From Escherichia coli (GTDB taxonomy: Bacteria > Pseudomonadota > Gammaproteobacteria > Enterobacterales > Enterobacteriaceae): a stretch of 64,000 nt of DNA. The stretch lies in assembly GCF_013315695.1 (NCBI RefSeq), contig NZ_CP054353.1; one strand, written 5' to 3'. The position numbers were made by a program, and so were the translations under genes. The notes under the pieces were generated by a model. The model saw only the letters and a list, made by a program, of their open reading frames with translations. It searched no databases and was not told where the DNA came from. Below, one piece after another: positions 1-29,342 of the stretch; the stretch's first letter is position 1; each line of letters starts with the position of its first letter.

Positions 1-1011
1 TCCAACCTGTTACGCCAAACCGCGATTACCGGCATCCTCGCGGTAGGAATGGTGTTCGTCATAATTTCTGCTGAAATCGACCTTTCCGTCGGCTCAATGA
101 TGGGGCTGTTAGGTGGCGTCGCGGCGATTTGTGACGTCTGGCTAGGCTGGCCTTTGCCACTTACCATCATTGTGACTTTGGTTCTGGGACTGCTTCTCGG
201 TGCCTGGAACGGATGGTGGGTCGCGTACCGCAAAGTCCCTTCATTTATTGTCACCCTCGCGGGCATGTTGGCATTTCGCGGCATACTCATTGGCATCACC
301 AACGGCACGACTGTTTCCCCCACCAGCGCCGCGATGTCACAAATCGGGCAAAGCTATCTACCCGCCAGCACCGGCTTCATCATTGGCGCGCTTGGCTTAA
401 TGGCTTTTGTTGGCTGGCAATGGCGCGGAAGAATGCGCCGTCAGGCTTTGGGTTTGCAGTCTCCGGCCTCTACCGCAGTTGTCGGTCGCCAGGCATTAAC
501 GGCGATTATCGTCTTAGGCGCAATCTGGCTGTTGAACGATTACCGTGGCGTTCCCACTCCTGTTCTGCTGCTGACGTTGCTGTTACTCGGCGGAATGTTT
601 ATGGCAACGCGGACGGCATTTGGACGACGCATTTATGCCATCGGCGGCAATCTGGAAGCAGCACGTCTCTCCGGGATTAACGTTGAACGCACCAAACTTG
701 CCGTATTCGCTATTAACGGATTAATGGTAGCCATCGCCGGATTAATCCTCAGTTCTCGACTTGGCGCTGGTTCACCTTCTGCGGGGAATATCGCCGAGCT
801 GGACGCAATTGCAGCATGCGTGATTGGCGGCACCAGTCTGGCAGGCGGCGTCGGGAGCGTGGCCGGAGCGGTAATGGGGGCATTCATCATGGCTTCACTG
901 GATAACGGCATGAGTATGATGGATGTACCGACCTTCTGGCAGTATATCGTTAAAGGTGCGATTCTGTTGCTGGCAGTATGGATGGACTCCGCAACCAAAC
1001 GCCGTTCTTGA
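1..1011 (+). CDS. xylH: xylose ABC transporter permease XylH, 3' portion (5' end lies outside the window)
   Basis: Open frame runs from base 1 to the stop at 1011; translation is a hydrophobic ABC permease; position immediately upstream of xylR matches the xylFGH-xylR layout. Confidence 0.85.
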
Positions 1012-1088
1012 TTTTGATAAAAATTTTCTCAAAGCCGGTAACGTATTACCGGTTTTGAGTTTTTGCATGATTCAGCAGGAAAAGAACC

Positions 1089-2268
1089 ATGTTTACTAAA
1101 CGTCACCGCATCACATTACTGTTCAATGCCAATAAAGCCTATGACCGGCAGGTAGTAGAAGGCGTAGGGGGAATATTTACAGGCGTCACAATCGGAATGG
1201 GATATTTTCATTGAAGAAGATTTCCGCGCCCGCATTGATAAAATCAAGGACTGGTTAGGAGATGGCGTCATTGCCGACTTCGACAACAAACAAATCGAGC
1301 AAGCGCTAGCTGATGTCGACGTCCCCATTGTTGGGGTTGGTGGCTCGTATCACCTTGCCGAAAGTTACCCACCCGTTCATTACATTGCCACCGATAACTA
1401 TGCGCTGGTTGAAAGCGCGTTTTTGCATTTAAAAGAGAAAGGCGTTAACCGCTTTGCTTTTTATGGTCTTCCGGAATCAAGCGGTAAACGTTGGGCCACT
1501 GAACGCGAATATGCATTTCGTCAGCTTGTCGCCGAAGAAAAGTATCGCGGAGTGGTTTATCAGGGATTAGAAACCGCGCCAGAGAACTGGCAACACGCGC
1601 AAAATCGGCTGGCAGACTGGCTACAAACGCTGCCACCGCAAACCGGGATTATTGCCGTTACTGACGCCCGGGCGCGGCATATTCTGCAAGTATGTGAACA
1701 TCTACACATTCCCGTACCGGAAAAATTATGCGTGATTGGCATCGATAACGAAGAACTGACCCGCTATCTGTCGCGTGTCGCCCTTTCTTCGGTCGCTCAG
1801 GGCGCGCGGCAAATGGGCTATCAGGCGGCAAAACTGTTGCATCGATTATTAGATAAAGAAGAAATGCCGCTACAGCGGATTTTGGTCCCACCAGTTCGCG
1901 TCATTGAACGGCGCTCAACAGATTACCGCTCGCTGACCGATCCCGCCGTTATTCAGGCCATGCATTACATTCGTAATCACGCCTGTAAAGGGATTAAAGT
2001 GGATCAGGTACTGGATGCGGTGGGCATATCACGCTCCAATCTTGAGAAGCGTTTTAAAGAAGAGGTGGGTGAAACCATCCATGCCATGATTCATGCCGAG
2101 AAGCTGGAGAAAGCGCGCAGTCTGCTGATTTCAACCACCTTGTCGATCAATGAGATATCGCAAATGTGCGGTTATCCATCGCTGCAATATTTCTACTCTG
2201 TTTTTAAAAAAGCATATGACACGACGCCAAAAGAGTATCGCGATGTAAATAGCGAGGTCATGTTGTAG
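1089..2268 (+). pseudogene. xylR: xylose operon regulator XylR (AraC family), disrupted by +1 frameshift in a G5 run at 1167-1171
   Basis: ATG at 1089 opens MFTKRHRITLLFNANKAYDRQVVEGVG then stops at 1212-1214; the rest of the XylR-like sequence continues in the +1 frame to the stop at 2268; total span is 1180 bp, one more than a whole number of codons. Confidence 0.7.
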
Positions 2269-2279
2269 CGATGATGAGA

Positions 2280-2360
2280 ATTGTCGGCGTCGCATCAGGT
2301 AACTCAGTACAATCACCTGATGCGAGCAAAAGCCTTATCCGACCGACAAGTCGGATAAGG
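2280..2360. repeat. REP/BIME-type palindromic units in the xylR-bax intergenic region
   Basis: GC-rich imperfect palindromes (gcgtcgcatcaggt ... cacctgatgcgagc ... cttatccgac...gtcggataagg) typical of enterobacterial REP elements. Confidence 0.5.
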
Positions 2361-2375
2361 CTCGAGGAAATGCAA

Positions 2376-3200
2376 TTACATATGTGCCGCGATTAACCGT
2401 TGGTTATCCTGGTACATTGCGAACAGGTAGTTGTTATAACTCTTCCCTTTGGTCGAGTAGCCCTTCAGCTTGTGAATCATCGCTGTGGCAGTCACTTCCT
2501 GATCCGCTTTACGCAGCTGTGCACGCGATTTACGGAACGAAGAGTAAGCCGGATGCGTATTCAGGTTAGTAACATAGGCGCTCACCGATTCTTTGACAGA
2601 ACTAAACTGTGAGTACCCTTTCACTTTACCCGGCGCATTGGTACAACGTCCTTTCATGCATTTCATGCCGAACAGGTTGTTGTTGTTGCGCGCCAGCTTC
2701 GACGTTCCCCAACCGCTTTCTGCTGCAGCCATCGTCGCCACCATACTGGTAGGGATAATGTCTACGCGTTCAAGCAAAGTATTCCACGGGATTTTTCGCG
2801 TATTACCAGACCACTTCACCTTGTAGCGTTTGGCGATGTCTTTCAGACGCGCACGCTCAGCAGGTGACCATTGGCCCTGATACTGTTTTGAAATCAGCCA
2901 GTTACGTTCCGCAGTAATGGCCGCATTTTGGCTGGTAATGTAAGGCATTACGGTCCGGAGAAACGCCTTTTTCCTTGGTGTTCCGGAAGGGTATTTTCGC
3001 AAATCAGGAAGTGAACTACTCTTTGCACTATTGCGAGAATACTCTTGTTTACTGCTTACCTGTTTATTACTAGCTTTAGTTAAGTGGGACTTTTGACTCG
3101 CTGTTGTTGTGTGCGTCTTCGCTAACACCTCACTCGAAAACACCAGAGTGAGTAACATAAGAATCATCGCCCCATATCGTCGTATGGGAGTCAAAATCAT
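2376..3200 (-). CDS. bax: Bax protein (putative glucosaminidase-domain protein)
   Basis: 274-aa ORF with N-terminal signal-like segment; sequence and position match Bax. Confidence 0.8.
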   Translation of the reverse strand: MILTPIRRYGAMILMLLTLVFSSEVLAKTHTTTASQKSHLTKASNKQVSSKQEYSRNSAKSSSLPDLRKYPSGTPRKKAFLRTVMPYITSQNAAITAERNWLISKQYQGQWSPAERARLKDIAKRYKVKWSGNTRKIPWNTLLERVDIIPTSMVATMAAAESGWGTSKLARNNNNLFGMKCMKGRCTNAPGKVKGYSQFSSVKESVSAYVTNLNTHPAYSSFRKSRAQLRKADQEVTATAMIHKLKGYSTKGKSYNNYLFAMYQDNQRLIAAHM

Positions 3201-22139: not shown

Positions 22140-23114
22140 ATGACAAAATTACAACTTAAGTACCGGGAGTTAAAAATTATCTCGGTAATCGCTGCCAGTG
22201 AAAATATCAGCCATGCCGCGACTGTACTTGGCATCGCACAGGCCAACGTCAGCAAATATCTTGCTGATTTTGAATCAAAAGTGGGTTTAAAAGTCTTTGA
22301 CCGAACCACCCGACAGCTGATGCTCACACCTTTTGGCACCGTGCTGTTACCGTACATCAACGACATGCTGGACAGAAACGAGCAGCTTAATAATTTTATT
22401 GCAGATTATAAGCATGAGAAACGTGGTCGGGTCACTATCTATGCACCAACCGGCATAATTACCTATTTATCCAAACATGTAATCGATAAAATTAAAGATA
22501 TCGGTGATATCACCTTATCGCTAAAAACCTGCAATCTTGAGCGTAATGCCTTTTATGAAGGCGTCGAATTTCCCGATGATTGTGATGTTTTAATCAGCTA
22601 CGCCCAACCAAAAGATGAATCGCTGGTTGCCAGTTTTATTACCCAATATGCCGTAACCGCTTATGCCAGCCAGCGCTATCTTGGGAAACATCCCATTAGC
22701 CGTCCTGACGAACTCGAACATCACTCCTGTATTTTGATCGACTCGATGATGATCGACGACGCGAATATCTGGCGCTTCAACGTCGCCGGGAGTAAAGAGG
22801 TGCGGGATTATCGCGTGAAGGGAAATTACGTTTGCGACAACACGCAATCTGCGCTGGAGCTGGCACGAAATCACCTGGGGATTGTGTTTGCGCCAGACAA
22901 AAGTGTGCAGAGCGACCTGCAAGACGGCACGCTGGTGCCCTGCTTTCAGCACCCGTATGAATGGTGGCTGGATCTGGTGGCTATCTTCCGTAAACGGGAA
23001 TACCAGCCCTGGCGGGTCCAGTATGTGCTGGATGAAATGCTGCGTGAAATTCGCCACCAGCTTGCTCAGTCGCAGCAACTGCGGCCTGAACAAGCGGCGG
23101 AAAGCGAAGATTAA
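22140..23114 (+). CDS. yiaU: LysR-family transcriptional regulator YiaU
   Basis: 324 aa; N-terminal HTH and LysR substrate-binding domain. Confidence 0.85.
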
Positions 23115-24247
23115 TGATCGAGATAAAGGTAATGCACCCAGCTGGTCATGCGTAACAGTACTTTGCGCATCACCGAGACATGGCTGAAATGATCAGAGTA
23201 GACCGCCACCTGGGCGTAAATACCGTCTGGTAATGCGCTCAAATCAGTATGCTCATCCAGTTCAATGGTCGCGATAACGCCATCTGAACCCGGCTCTGTG
23301 TTTAACGTCTGTAAGGTGCCGGTCGACTGATAAGCTCCGCCGGGAACGGCTGGACTAATGGCTGCCAGCTTACCGCTGAATACCTTACCTGGCAGAGCAT
23401 TAAACACCACTTCCGCATCGTCGCCAGGAGCCAGTCGCAGCAAGGAGTTCTGACGGAACTGCGCCACGATTTGTCGTTTCTGATCGGGTATAAACACCAT
23501 CACCGGACGTAGCGGCAGCGACGCGGCATAGGTACCCGGACGAATCAGTACCTGGGTCACATAACCATCGCTCGGCGCACGCACTATCGTCTGCTCAAGG
23601 TTATATTTTGCTTCCGCGAGCTGCGCTTTCAGGCTGGCGATTTGAGAATGTTCACCCAACACCAGGCTATCCAGCTGGCTCTGGATCTGTTTTTGTTCCG
23701 CCGCCGCTGATTTTACGGAGGCTTCCTGCGCCAGATAATTTTGCCGCGCCACATCGATATCGCGTTCTGAAAACGGGTTTACTTTCGCCTGACTGCCGCG
23801 TGCGTAACGCTGATACTCTTTAGCGAATTTATCCCGCGTGGCCTTTGCCTGCTGAGTATTCGCCGCCATCTCATCTAACTCTGCGCCCAACGCCCGCTGT
23901 TTATGTTCTGCGGTAACGATATCCGCCATCAGCCGATCCACCCGCGCCTGATAACGCGTCGGGTCCAGTCGAAATAGCACCTCACCTTTTTTAATCAGCG
24001 TATTTTTCTTGTCCGTCACTTCGATCACCACGCCTGTCACCTGTGGGACAACAGGAATAGAAATAACCGCTTTTTGCGCTTTAAAGGTATACGGATGGTT
24101 ATAGTTCATTAACAGAATTAAACCGCTGACAATAAATATGCCACCCAGGGCCGCGGTGGGAATGGTCCATTTATTTACAGGAATTTTGAAGATCTTAAAC
24201 ATTGCCCATGCGAAAGCCACATAGGTCAAAATAATCAGTAAATCCAT
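23111..24247 (-). CDS. yiaV: HlyD-family membrane fusion protein YiaV
   Basis: 378 aa; N-terminal TM helix, coiled coil and beta-barrel sandwich; paralogous to yibH in this window. Confidence 0.85.
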
Positions 24248-24252
24248 AAGTA

Positions 24253-24576
24253 TTACTCGGCAGAAGAGGATTTGATGTCGGCGAGCTGTTTCTCCAGCCC
24301 GGCAATACGCTGTTGTAGTTGCACAACGGAGGAGTCATGGTTTTGCATTCCCCATCCCCGCTCCGGGCGGTAAAGCGTGGCCCAAATCCACAAAAATGGC
24401 CAGATAACATGCAGCGTAAAAAGACTCACCCAACCAGCAACATGAATGGCGTCGGCATGAGGATGATTACGTTTTTTAGCAATCAGGTAGGGAATATCAT
24501 GTAAAATAATAATCCCATAGAAGATCACCAGAAATACAAAAATAAGCACTCCCAGTGCAAAATAATCCAGGAACAT
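24253..24576 (-). CDS. yiaW: DUF3302-family inner membrane protein YiaW
   Basis: 107 aa from [11 protein letters not shown]; about 90% identical to yibI in this window. Confidence 0.8.
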
Positions 24577-24994
24577 ATTTCCCTCAGAGAATATAAAAAA
24601 GAACAATTAACGCATATTATGAAATACCATAATGCGGTGCAATTTCCTTATTTATATAACGACATATGGTTTTTTATATACTTTCTGAAGTGTGTGCCTG
24701 GCTTTTCAACAGGTCGAAGCTTATCATATTGAAATAATGTAACTATTGACCAAATTTATGAATAAAAACCGTAAAACATCCACAATGCAGATTAAGCGTA
24801 TTAAACCTTCAATTATCTACCGTTTATTGCTGATTGGCCTCGGAACGCCAATGGTGATTTATGGCCTGGTTCGCCCGCTCACCATCGAAACGCGAGATTA
24901 AACTCCTGGCAAAACACGCCCCAGAAACGCACTTCTGTTGGCGTAGTCTGGGTTATTGCGCACGTAGATTTAAAACGTAAATTGTAACAACGTG

Positions 24995-25095
24995 CGCTTT
25001 GTTTATGCCGGATGCGGCGTGTACGCCTTATCCGGCCTACGGTCAGGTCCCCGTAGGCATGATAAGACACGTAAGCGTCGCATCAGGCAATGAAT
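24995..25095. repeat. REP/BIME palindromic units downstream of aldB
   Basis: Canonical REP strings gccggatgcggcgtgtacgccttatccggcctacgg and gcgtcgcatcaggc. Confidence 0.55.
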
Positions 25096-25119
25096 ACCCA
25101 ATGCGACCAGCTTCTTATA

Positions 25120-26658
25120 TCAGAACAGCCCCAACGGTTTATCCGAGTAGCTCACCAGCAGGCACTTGGTTTGCTGGTAATGCTCAAGCATCATCTTATG
25201 GGTTTCGCGTCCGATGCCCGACTGTTTGTAGCCGCCAAACGCCGCATGTGCCGGGTAAGCGTGATAACAGTTGGTCCACACGCGCCCGGCCTGAATGCCG
25301 CGCCCCATCTTATAGGCCAGATTACCGTTGCGGCTCCAGACACCCGCGCCCAGGCCATATTGCGTGTCGTTCGCCAGCTCCAGCGCCTCGTCCATCGTTT
25401 TGAAGGTGGTTACCGCTAGCACCGGGCCAAAAATCTCCTCCTGGAACACGCGCATATTATTCTGACCAAACAGAATCGTCGGTTCGAGGTAGTAGCCGTC
25501 TTTCAGTTCGCCTTCCAGCAGCTTGCGCCGCCCGCCGGTGAGCACGTCTGCGCCCTCTTTTTTACCAATATCAATGTAGTTGAGGATGGTTTCCAGTTGC
25601 CCGTGAGAAACCTGCGCCCCCATTTGCGTCACGCTGTCGAGCGGGTTACCGCTACGAATGCTTTCGACACGGCGGATGGCGCGTTCCATAAAGCGTTCGT
25701 AGATAGACTCCTGCACTAAAGCACGGCTTGGACAGGTGCAAACTTCGCCCTGGTTAAAGGCAAACAGTGCAAAGCCTTCCAGCGCTTTATCGAAAAAGGC
25801 ATCTTCTTCATCCATCACATCAGCAAAGAAGATATTTGGCGACTTGCCGCCCAGTTCCAGGGTTACCGGAATAATATTTTGCGTGGCGTACTGCATAATT
25901 TGTTGGCCCACTTCCGTTGATCCGGTAAACGCCACTTTGGCGATGCGTTTCGAGGTCGCCAGATATTCGCCAATTTCCCCACCAGCGCCGTTAACCACGT
26001 TCACCACGCCCGGCGGCAGTAAATCACCGACGATTTCCATTAGCAGCAGTACAGAAAGCGGGGTAAGACGTGCGGGTTTCAGCACCACACAGTTGCCCGC
26101 CGCCAGCGCGGGAGCCATTTTCCAGCTCGCCATCAGCAGCGGGAAGTTCCACGGAATAATCTGCCCCACCACGCCTAACGGTTCGTGGAAGTGATAAGCC
26201 ACAGTTTCGCTATCCACTTCACTAATACCGCCTTCCTGCGCCCGAATACACGAGGCAAAATAGCGAAAATGGTCAATCGCCAGCGGCACATCAGCAGCAC
26301 TGGTTTCGCGAATGGGTTTGCCGTTATCCCAGGTTTCAGCGGTCGCTAACAGTTCGAGGTTCTGCTCCATCCGATCGGCAATCTTAAACAGAATCGCCGC
26401 GCGATCCTGCACCGAAGTATGCGCCCATTTATCTTTCACTTTGTGCGCAGCATCCAGCGCCAGATCGATGTCTCGTTTGCCCGAAGACGCCACTTCGCAC
26501 AGCAGCTGTCCGGTCACCGGCGTCAGGTTCTGGTAATACTCGCCGTCGGCAGGGGCTACCCATTCGCCGCCAATAAAGTTGTCGTAGCGGGCTTTTAACT
26601 TGAGGGGGAAACCATACTCGCCGGGCTTAATCTGTGCTGAAGGGGGATTATTGGTCAT
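25120..26658 (-). CDS. aldB: aldehyde dehydrogenase B
   Basis: 512 aa starting [15 protein letters not shown]; aldehyde dehydrogenase catalytic Cys/Glu motifs; the six-frame ORF is 30 codons longer upstream. Confidence 0.9.
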
Positions 26659-26765
26659 GATCGTCTCCTTGCGGTGTGAGGTATAACAAGGGTAGACGTG
26701 ACTGGCGAAATCTTCGCCAGTCGATAACAGCTTTACGACGGCTATCACGAATTTACGGGCAAGGG

Positions 26766-28061
26766 TTACAGCGGATAATGCGCGAAGTACACGGCTTGCT
26801 GGTCATTAATTTTCTTCTCTTGCGCAAACCCTTCTTTAACAATTGTCCGTAAATCAGCTCGAGCCGTATTATCAGAGACGCCCAGGCTCGCGCTAATTTC
26901 AGCAACTGTGTACTCTTTCCCCGGATTGGCGAGCATCACATTCAGGAGCGTTACCTGGCGCGGATTCAGGCGTTTAAGCACACCAGAGCTAAACAGCACA
27001 CTATCGAGTTTTGCGCTTCGTTGTGTAATTTCATCGATATGCTGCTGCCAGTTTTGCAGAGCACGTTTAATGACACCCGCCTGATATTCAAGGAAATAAG
27101 TCAGATCCATACCATCTGATTCAGTGTACTGGTAGCTGGCGGCATATTTGACCGGTGCAGCATGAAGCAAACGGCTGATGGAAATATATTTAAAGACATC
27201 GTAGCCCGATTTCAGCATATACCAGTAAAACAGCGCCCGACTGGTGCGCCCGTTGCCATCCCGAAACGGATGTTCATGGGCCAGCATAAAATGCAGAATG
27301 CAGGCACGGACCAACGGATGAATATACCCTTCATGGCTGTTTAACCACTGGCAAACTTTTTCCAGCCGTTCCGGTAACAATGCCGCAGCGGGCGGTTGAT
27401 GCACTATATTGCCATCATAGTCGGCGATCACAACATCATCTGTTTCACGAAATTCTCCCGGACGATATTTCGCGTCATTGATTCCACCCATACCAATGGC
27501 ATGTAACTGGCGAATAAGCGCAGGTGTCAGCGGTTCTGCGAGTAAGTGCGGAATTTCCGCCATCAGCCGGGCATTTCCCGCAATCATATGCTCGTCTTCA
27601 GTGCGTGGCGACCGCCCTGTTTCCAGCATTTTTCTCGCCACCAGCGTTGTAGTATTCGCACCTTCCAGCTGGGAGCTGGTGATCGGCTCTTCCAGGCGTA
27701 ACTGGCTTAACTCGGCTCCGGCCCCGCGTAACCGTTCAGTCTGATCTTTCAGCGCCAGCGCGGTAGCACGTTTGTCGACAAGCTCGCACGCTTCTGCAAT
27801 CACCGGGGTAATGTTGAATCCGGCCTGTTCACCCGCTTCATTGCAATAATTAATTCGTTGGATCGCCGCGTTGCGCGCCAGACGGGTAAGCGTCCACGCC
27901 ACATCGACGTTTTCTCCTTTTTTGATGCGGTACTGCAACTCATCAAAAGGCAGATAACGTCCTTTTTCATCGGTAACCCGGTTAAAGCGCAGGTGGGCCA
28001 GGAGTTCCTCACCCGATAAGTGTGATAAAGGAATAAGTCCGGGAGGTGATTTGATAGCCAT
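26766..28061 (-). CDS. Fic (AMPylase-type) family protein with N-terminal inhibitory motif and C-terminal winged-helix domain
   Basis: 431 aa; Fic active-site motif [15 protein letters not shown]-terminal SSQLEG matching the (S/T)xxxE(G/N) inhibitory-helix pattern; C-terminal HTH-like segment ([28 protein letters not shown]). Confidence 0.8.
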
Positions 28062-28064
28062 GTG

Positions 28065-28145
28065 CTTATCTCAAAAAAGCGCAATATTGAGATAGTGTAT
28101 AGCAGGAAAGAGAAACTATCTCAAAAAAAGCAAGTTTTGAGATAG
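28065..28145. promoter_or_regulatory. two ~30-bp palindromes (TATCTCAAAAAA…TTGAGATAG) immediately upstream of the Fic gene; candidate operator pair
   Basis: cttatctcaaaaaagcgcaatattgagatag at 28065-28095 and ctatctcaaaaaaagcaagttttgagatag at 28116-28145. Confidence 0.45.
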
Positions 28146-28190
28146 TTGAAAAAGCGGCTGACAACTCGCCAGCCGTTGTGGGAATGATGA

Positions 28191-29342
28191 TTACATTGCG
28201 GCGCGATAAATCGCCACAATTTCTTCGTGAGTTGCCTGGATCGGGTTAGTAAAGCCACAGGCATCTTTCAGGGCATTAGTCGCCAGTACCGCGAAATCTT
28301 CTTCTTTCACGTTCAGGTCACGCAGGCCTGCCGGGATATCCACTTTCTTCGCCAGTTCACGGATGGCGTTAATGCAGGCTTCAGCACCTTCCGCGTCGTT
28401 TTTACCAGTCACGTTCACGCCCATTGCAGCGGCACAGTCACGCAGACGTGCTGCAGCGACTTTGCTATTGAATACCTGAACGTGTGGCAGCAGAACAGCA
28501 TTACATACACCGTGTGGCAGGTTGTAGAAACCGCCCAGCTGGTGCGCCATCGCATGAACATAACCCAGAGAAGCATTATTGAACGCCATACCGGCGAGGA
28601 ACTGGGCATAAGCCATTGCTTCACGCGCTTTCGCATTACTGCCATCTTCAACGGCTAACGGCAGGTTTTCGGCAATCATGGTCACGGCTTTCAGTGCGCA
28701 AGCGTCAGTGATCGGCGTGGCGGCAATAGAAACATACGCTTCGATAGCGTGCGTTAAGGCATCCATACCCGTTGCGGCGGTCAGTGACTTCGGCATACCG
28801 ACCATCAGAGATGAGTCATTGACAGAAAGCAACGGAGTTACATGTTTATCAACAATCGCCATTTTGATATGACGCGCTTCGTCAGTGATGATGCAGAAAC
28901 GGGTCATTTCAGAGGCCGTACCCGCCGTGGTATTGATGGCGATCATCGGCAGCTGCGGTTTTGCAGAGCGGTCAACGCCTTCGTAATCGCGAATATCGCC
29001 GCCATTGGCTGCCACCAGCGCAATACCTTTTGCGCAGTCGTGCGGAGAACCACCGCCTAAGGAGATCACGCTATCGCAATTATTTTCTTTAAGTAATTTC
29101 AAACCTGCGGCGACGTTTTCCGTGGTGGGGTTAGGTTGGGTGCCATCATAAATAACGCTAAAAATATTGCGTTCTTCCAGTGCTTTTTGCACATCACCCG
29201 CCATACCCAATTTCGTTAACATATTGTCGGTGACAATTAAGGTACGGGTAAATCCATAATCTGCCATCATATTCATTGCATCATTCAATGAATCAGCACC
29301 AATAACATTCACGGAAGGAATAAAAAAGGTTGAAGCTGCCAT
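28191..29342 (-). CDS. yiaY: iron-containing alcohol dehydrogenase YiaY
   Basis: 383-aa Fe-ADH family protein. Confidence 0.85.

Follow-up and report, generated by a model that had tools for sequence, protein, structure and literature searches.

Why a Fic-family gene lies between the core metabolic genes aldB and yiaY on some Escherichia coli chromosomes, and what its product does there, are the questions raised by a 64,000-nucleotide stretch of contig NZ_CP054353.1 (RefSeq assembly GCF_013315695.1), the whole of which is referred to below as the window. The gene occupies positions 26766..28061 of the minus strand, on which all the features of the gene and its upstream region described here are located, and consists of an intact open reading frame (ORF) of 431 codons (ATG start, stop included) that forms a single-gene unit. 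The RefSeq annotation of the product in E. coli is 'Fic family protein', and we found no publication on this gene (aldB+yiaY+Fic, WP_000985736). The initial annotation of the locus ran to position 28190 and thus combined the ORF with the 129-nt intergenic stretch that separates its ATG from the yiaY stop codon and that contains the yiaY terminator and two putative operators. On the evidence presented below, it appears likely that the product of the gene is a class II Fic nucleotidyl-transferase, probably an AMPylase, which would repress its own promoter through the two operators, would be held inactive by Glu133 of its inhibitory helix and would slow growth when released, and that this gene is ancestral and has been lost in K-12. 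The protein is not orthologous to any characterized enzyme and represents an uncharacterized subfamily of class II Fic proteins with a domain of the winged helix-turn-helix (wHTH) type at the C-terminus, an additional N-terminal domain and a pair of TCTCAA-N12-TTGAGA operators.

Domain architecture and conserved motifs

The assignment of the 431-aa protein to the Fic/Fido superfamily, which had been proposed from the catalytic motif, is borne out by a match to Pfam PF02661 (Fic/DOC; residues 177-281, 27219..27533, E 1.7e-19), by the active site H264-P-F-R-D-G-N-G-R272-T-S-R275 (27237..27272), which was read from the sequence and conforms to HxFx(D/E)GNGRxxR, and by Foldseek matches to many Fic structures with a probability of 1.00. 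The putative inhibitory-helix motif S129-S-Q-L-E133-G134 (27660..27677), likewise read from the sequence, fits the pattern (S/T)xxxE(G/N) and is located 130 residues N-terminal to the catalytic H264. Class II Fic proteins have this motif within the same chain, on the N-terminal side of the Fic core (Engel et al. 2012, summarized in PMC12249575 and PMC9755527), and this is the arrangement found here, as the initial annotation had recognized. Alignment of 36 full-length relatives (40-75% identity) shows no variation, in any of the 36 sequences, in the stretch I-x-S-S-Q-L-E-G-A or in the catalytic H, F, D, G, N, G, R and R; full-length orthologues comprise 431-455 aa.

The Fic core is flanked by two further domains. 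The N-terminal domain (residues 1-85; 27807..28061), which is specific to the subfamily, is predicted to consist of three helices and a beta-hairpin and contains the conserved residues D31-x-x-G34-R35-Y36, D40, R45, W56 and R63; for these ~85 residues, there was no Pfam or fold match. The predicted winged helix at the C-terminus (26781..26981) is apparent in the AlphaFold2 model, which was made with a 36-relative alignment and reached a mean predicted local distance difference test score (pLDDT) of 90.3 and a predicted template modeling score (pTM) of 0.85, and in which residues 361-427 form a helix-helix-helix-hairpin. The same region shows weak matches to several helix-turn-helix (HTH) families of Pfam (residues 361-414) and is covered by the PADLOC hidden Markov model (HMM) for SoFic, PDLC03963, which matches residues 96-428 over profile positions 30-351 of 361 (E 1.2e-43, 147.9 bits); the Pfam SoFic-like C-terminal family was not detected in the protein. 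The top Foldseek matches in the PDB are solved Fic+wHTH enzymes, namely CbFic2 (8cil), SoFic (3zcn/3eqx), Dde_2494 (4rgl) and CccR (7xux), with ~350-360 columns aligned to SoFic, CbFic2 and CccR. On the strength of Pfam searches and structure prediction, the order of a class II Fic domain followed by a wHTH domain, as suggested initially, can be considered established.

Among these structures, the best superposition is with SoFic (Shewanella oneidensis SO_4266; PDB 3EQX/3ZCN), with a template modeling (TM) score of 0.65-0.69 on the target. Dimeric SoFic binds DNA within its own upstream region, over the 100 bp that precede the start codon; it differs from the protein analyzed here in its sequence (~18% identity), in the absence of the extra ~85-aa N-terminal domain and in having EF-Tu as its target, which it AMPylates in switch I and also deAMPylates (bioRxiv 10.64898/2026.07.09.737422). 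CbFic2 (Coxiella burnetii CBU_0822; PDB 8CIL), the top Foldseek match (E 4.9e-12, 21% identity), is also a Fic+HTH enzyme, and its activity is controlled by DNA binding and switched by DNA-dependent dimerization (PMC10628234), but it is a host-directed effector that acts on histone H3, binds DNA non-specifically and lacks the N-terminal extra domain; nothing at the aldB-yiaY gene points to a eukaryotic role.

The catalytic fold and motif, together with growth-arresting AMPylation as a general theme, are also common to the class I pairs Fic/YhfG of E. coli K-12 and FicT/FicA. In those pairs, the inhibitory helix resides on a separate antitoxin, whereas here it belongs to the same chain, a DNA-binding domain has been added and no partner gene is present.

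Putative operators and promoter

The upstream limit of the Fic unit is set by the predicted yiaY terminator, a G+C-rich stem-loop followed by a T run that was found in the terminator scan (28155..28175). Between this element and the ATG lie two palindromes, which we interpret as candidate operators. Operator 1 (28114..28147) has perfect 13-nt inverted arms, AACTATCTCAAAA-N8-TTTTGAGATAGTT, with a TCTCAA-N12-TTGAGA core at 28119-28142; operator 2 (28067..28096; ACTATCTCAA-N10-TTGAGATA) has the same core at 28069-28092, 50 nt from operator 1. In the 64-kb window, TCTCAA-N12-TTGAGA has exactly two matches, both just upstream of the Fic ORF, compared to 0.13 expected, and no third site was found there when one mismatch was allowed; the palindromic promoter elements noticed initially thus stand out from the background. 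A candidate -35 element, TTGAGA (28119..28124), coincides with the right half-site of operator 1 and is separated by 17 nt from a candidate -10 element, TATACA (28096..28101), both read from the sequence; together they make up a sigma-70-like pair on the minus strand, and operator 2 falls between the -10 element and the ATG. This pair escaped the automatic promoter scan for the sole reason that the scan accepts nothing but T as the sixth base of a -10 element.

Operator 1 was flagged as terminator-like by the terminator scan. This interpretation was rejected given that the stem is A+T-rich, that the G+C-rich yiaY terminator already lies 8 nt upstream and that orthologues in unrelated contexts have the element upstream of them as well. 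A search of positions 26500-28400 against Rfam (E<=1) detected no known RNA element in the intergenic regions.

The layout is conserved across genera. Exact copies of TCTCAA-N12-TTGAGA lie a short distance upstream of the orthologues from E. albertii, Salmonella, Pseudescherichia, Glaciecola, Pseudomonas, Alcanivorax, Halopseudomonas and gammaproteobacterial metagenome-assembled genomes, and most of these orthologues have a pair of palindromes ~50 nt apart, of which the proximal one ends 0-8 nt before the start codon; in Enterobacterales, the palindromes are located at -81 and -31 relative to the ATG. In the Salmonella, Pseudescherichia and Glaciecola loci, TTGAGA is followed after 17/18 nt, between the palindromes, by TATACT/TATAAC. 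Moreover, the sequence of the palindrome covaries with that of the predicted recognition helix: SDNTAR or SYNTA is paired with TCTCAA and, among more distant family members, AYATAR is paired with TTATCAA, TYDTAR with TACCAA, and T(T/L)QT(S/A)R with TTAGCAG. This covariation is the strongest in silico sign that the winged helix reads these sites.

Several loci depart from the common pattern. In Alcanivorax quisquiliarum, an additional exact TCTCAA-N12-TTGAGA is present 1.2 kb upstream of the orthologue (positions 2813-2836 of locus L013), and a third site, close to the consensus, is located at about -125 relative to the start of the Fic gene; this species may possess a triple operator or a regulon of small size. 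Eight loci of the Pseudomonas fluorescens group show mutual synteny and degenerate upstream palindromes, and several matches in this group are truncated (query residues 18-335 to 18-376); these orthologues may be decaying copies.

Predicted mode of action

Given the paired palindromes that overlap the promoter, the conservation of their position across genera and their covariation with the helix, it is very likely that the Fic+wHTH protein is a repressor of its own promoter, as is the case for CccR. The latter protein (Yersinia pseudotuberculosis YPK_0951; matched by Foldseek as PDB 7XUX), which also combines a Fic domain with a C-terminal HTH, represses its own promoter through inverted repeats that overlap the -35 and -10 elements and AMPylates FtsZ (PMC9755527), and is the closest functional precedent for the layout described here. 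Under this model, a dimer of the E. coli protein would bind the two operators through its winged helices; with operator 1 overlapping the -35 element and operator 2 placed between the -10 element and the ATG, transcription from its own promoter would be repressed and the level of the protein would be kept low. In the resting state, Glu133 in the inhibitory helix would prevent ATP from binding productively, as in other members of class II, and so keep the enzyme inactive. A signal would then relieve this inhibition, and His264 would transfer AMP to a Ser, Thr or Tyr residue of a cellular target and thereby slow growth. The precedents of SoFic and CccR make an essential protein of the GTPase type, EF-Tu or FtsZ for example, a plausible target, and AMPylation is the most likely reaction of this nucleotidyl-transferase.

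Several considerations weigh against this interpretation. Fic folds also catalyze UMPylation, phosphocholination, phosphorylation and deAMPylation. The identity to CbFic2, SoFic, Dde_2494 and CccR in the Foldseek alignments is 17-22%, and the NCBIfam SoFic equivalog model NF046030 scores 40.2 bits against a curated cut-off of 550, far below the level at which the target and regulation of SoFic could be transferred. The CccR operator is a single long-spaced palindrome, AGATAATCAT-N26-ATGATAATCT, whereas here there are two TCTCAA-N12-TTGAGA sites 50 nt apart in which the half-sites are 18 bp from center to center, so the geometry of the dimer would have to differ. Finally, operator 2 is also part of the 5' untranslated region (UTR) and could form an RNA hairpin; the predicted fold is weak (-9 kcal/mol, z -1.87), and the notion of a regulatory 5'-UTR hairpin is without support.

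The same evidence bears on an alternative under which the protein is mainly a transcription factor, with the winged helix controlling a regulon wider than its own gene and the Fic domain serving not as a toxin but for sensing, as a switch that modifies itself or mainly for deAMPylation. The strong conservation of the operator architecture and the additional exact operator at the Alcanivorax locus fit this scenario, as do the reports that CccR affects other genes (PMC9755527), that SoFic constitutively deAMPylates EF-Tu (bioRxiv 10.64898/2026.07.09.737422) and that CbFic2 becomes a deAMPylating dimer on DNA (PMC10628234). The window, however, contains no further site that could define a regulon, and the invariance of all catalytic and inhibitory residues across the family indicates that catalysis is under selection; we therefore regard a primarily transcriptional role as unlikely. 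A bolder version of the autorepressed enzyme would be a one-gene, self-titrating growth switch, in which the operator-bound dimer serves as the repressor and is catalytically silent or a deAMPylase, until the N-terminal domain perceives a signal, be it phage, DNA damage or a metabolite, that releases the AMPylating toxin and at the same time derepresses its synthesis. This elaboration has, in our estimation, a slim chance of being correct.

Probable gene loss in most lineages of E. coli

With respect to the origin of the gene, two scenarios are to be considered: (i) a recent acquisition of a single accessory gene between aldB and yiaY, as the initial annotation had it, or (ii) an ancestral gene that was subsequently lost in part of the species. 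Our survey covered 5426 complete E. coli genomes, of which 5357 match the locus. The whole Fic gene is present in 1572 of the 5426 genomes (29%), always between aldB and yiaY, and is accordingly far from universal; all 5362 places found in E. coli are chromosomal. The carriers include enteropathogenic E. coli (EPEC) E2348/69, several strains labeled as uropathogenic (UPEC) and at least one O157:H7 strain. The patchy presence, along with the unrelated contexts of orthologues in other genera, one of them an island that resembles an integrative and conjugative element (ICE), is what could be expected of a recent insertion.

Other observations are at odds with this scenario. E. albertii possesses a 95%-identical orthologue at the same locus, followed by aldB. 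Between the window and E. albertii, synonymous divergence (dS) is 0.34 for the Fic gene and 0.39 for aldB, and the ratio of nonsynonymous to synonymous divergence (dN/dS) of the Fic gene is 0.068; the agreement of the dS values together with the low dN/dS points to co-inheritance of the two genes and to purifying selection. No mobility gene, tRNA site or target-site duplication was found at the locus. The alleles without the gene retain its remnants. One of them, present in 576 genomes, still has the whole of operator 1, including an exact TCTCAA-N12-TTGAGA; next comes TAGTTATCTCTGTAA, a sequence that can be aligned with the final codons of the ORF, TTATCCGCTGTAA. This orphan-operator allele corresponds to a 1332-bp deletion. 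The K-12-type allele, found in roughly 3200 genomes (a count obtained by subtraction), has CAACTATCTC joined directly to TGTAA, that is, the left operator arm fused to the TGTAA of the ORF end, and is equivalent to the orphan-operator allele minus the 36 nt between two TATCTC repeats. Neither an operator nor a stop codon left without its gene can be older than the gene itself, and the order of events is therefore from the occupied locus via the orphan-operator scar to the K-12 scar.

Thus, aldB and yiaY are indeed adjacent in K-12-like genomes, as stated in the initial annotation, but the comparison of the junction across E. coli reveals deletion scars instead of clean, unoccupied sites. Judging from these alleles, the K-12 junction is a deletion scar, and it appears that the ancestor shared by E. 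coli and E. albertii already had the Fic gene between aldB and yiaY and that most E. coli lineages, with K-12 among them, lost it later by deletion. A recent accessory insertion is accordingly very improbable.

Over longer time-scales, the family does move horizontally. The Salmonella enterica orthologue (Logan SRR21788689; 70% identical, both operators intact) has autotransporter genes on one side and an ICE-like module (AcaB, DUF3158, DUF3577 and DUF2859) on the other, which is a mobile context, and the Pseudescherichia copy resides among unrelated housekeeping genes. Carriage on mobile elements as the general mode of residence was rejected on account of the rarity of the family on plasmids (21 of 72,556 records) and its near-absence from phages.

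The comparison with other E. coli strains yielded further observations on the Fic-aldB region. For the Fic gene, the identity between the window and EPEC E2348/69 is 99.5% (dS 0.02), whereas for aldB (25120-26658) it is 95.9% (dS 0.19), a difference suggestive of recombination with a breakpoint at the junction of the two genes or close to it. Fusion products are encoded in some E. coli assemblies, namely P0098 (503 aa) and P0007 (438 aa), of which P0098 consists of the Fic N-terminal domain (100% identical, 39% of the query) followed by an aldehyde dehydrogenase (PF00171); these products suggest that additional alleles, in which a deletion connects Fic with aldB, arose independently.

Genomic neighborhood and possible role in phage defense

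The Fic gene is flanked by aldB on one side and by yiaY/selB/selA on the other. Downstream, the 107-nt spacer between its stop codon and the aldB ATG (26659..26765) holds the aldB promoter region and, from TGTAA on, is common to the genomes that lack the Fic gene; it contains no plausible small ORF and leaves no room for a partner or antitoxin gene of the AS1 type. When the ORFs within 1.5 kb of 66 family loci were compared all-against-all, shared neighbors were found only among closely related Pseudomonas. These results are in agreement with the single-gene organization proposed in the initial annotation.

SoFic-type proteins have been described as anti-phage systems, which brings up a more specific hypothesis, namely that the E. 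coli protein is a single-gene system of this type and acts by abortive infection, with infection relieving the autoinhibition and AMPylation of an essential host protein stopping phage production. In favor of such a role, the protein is matched by the PADLOC SoFic profile cited above (148 bits), SoFic-family proteins have been reported as a defense system (Millman et al., bioRxiv 10.1101/2022.05.11.491447), and Sofic of E. coli H397 (EcSofic) is toxic and was reported to protect against T5 (PMC12249575); in addition, the presence/absence polymorphism of the gene is typical of defense genes, and the Salmonella orthologue is found in the ICE-like island. However, the flanking genes in E. coli are core metabolic genes and do not form a defense island, inheritance is apparently vertical under strong purifying selection, and the scarcity on plasmids and phages noted above also counts against this role. 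Furthermore, the validated EcSofic, a toxic dimer of ~41-kDa subunits (~360 aa) with the catalytic residue H194, is encoded together with a downstream 47-aa antitoxin, AS1 (PMC12249575); the aldB-yiaY gene differs from it in length, in the N-terminal domain, in having no AS1-like downstream gene and in its non-island context.

Deletion of a predicted SoFIC in NILS69 had no effect against the 10 phages that infect this strain, and among native-promoter clones assayed in K-12 against 15 phages, only PD-T4-3 and PD-T7-1 were protective, the paper being silent on which systems were cloned successfully (PMC12409345). The SoFIC of NILS69, a B2 uropathogenic isolate, may be the aldB-yiaY gene. Altogether, we regard an anti-phage function as unsupported and rather doubtful. 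Such a function is nevertheless compatible with the autorepressed class II enzyme, of which it would be the physiological role.

The resemblance to CccR brings up yet another scenario, in which the protein is an effector of a type VI secretion system (T6SS) that poisons competitors and signals to kin. The two proteins have the architecture class and the autoregulatory logic in common (PMC9755527), but CccR is linked to a T6SS, has no counterpart of the N-terminal domain and is 18-19% identical to the protein studied here, and no secretion context was detected in our case: there are no T6SS or effector-immunity genes around the Fic gene, either in the window or at related loci, and no conserved neighbors in any genus. 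A secreted effector is hence highly improbable. We conclude that the aldB-yiaY gene is neither a SoFic equivalog, nor a Sofic-AS1 pair, nor a T6SS effector. It had also been singled out as the most system-like unexplained element; this is an overstatement given the PADLOC SoFic match and the precedents of Fic+wHTH enzymes that bind their own promoters, CccR (PMC9755527) and SoFic (bioRxiv 10.64898/2026.07.09.737422).

Some features of the surrounding region are of separate interest. From the Fic stop codon to the region of the aldB promoter (26659-26765), the terminator scan detected no terminator-like site, and transcription from the Fic promoter could run on into aldB in carrier strains. On the other side of aldB, the window and EPEC E2348/69 show a second presence/absence difference: in E2348/69 (locus L003, positions 1-3159), aldB is followed by genes of the araD/sgbU/ulaD type, whereas in the window (22140-24606) yiaW, yiaV and yiaU adjoin aldB. 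The gap of ~500 nt between yiaW and the 3' end of aldB (24607-25119) yields an ORF translation that abounds in strings of the RIRRTRRIRH type, which are typical of repetitive extragenic palindromic (REP) sequences and bacterial interspersed mosaic elements (BIME) when these are translated.

Implications

The aldB-yiaY Fic gene leaves the current concepts of Fic biology unchanged and is not expected to surprise a specialist. For E. coli, it implies that ~29% of the complete genomes, with many pathogenic strains among the carriers, hold an uncharacterized enzyme that probably modifies an essential protein and that is absent from K-12, the strain in which most of the physiology is done. The orphan operator in 576 genomes and the stepwise scars make up a tidy case of gene loss mistaken for insertion. 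Given that defense-prediction tools such as PADLOC will label this gene, which resides in a core context, as 'SoFic', counts of defense systems may be inflated. K-12 represents a natural null background for the Fic gene, and the predicted operators provide an immediate experimental handle. Should the self-titrating switch turn out to be real, these proteins would constitute a distinct regulatory subclass of Fic enzymes, one that is ancestral in Escherichia and has been repeatedly discarded.

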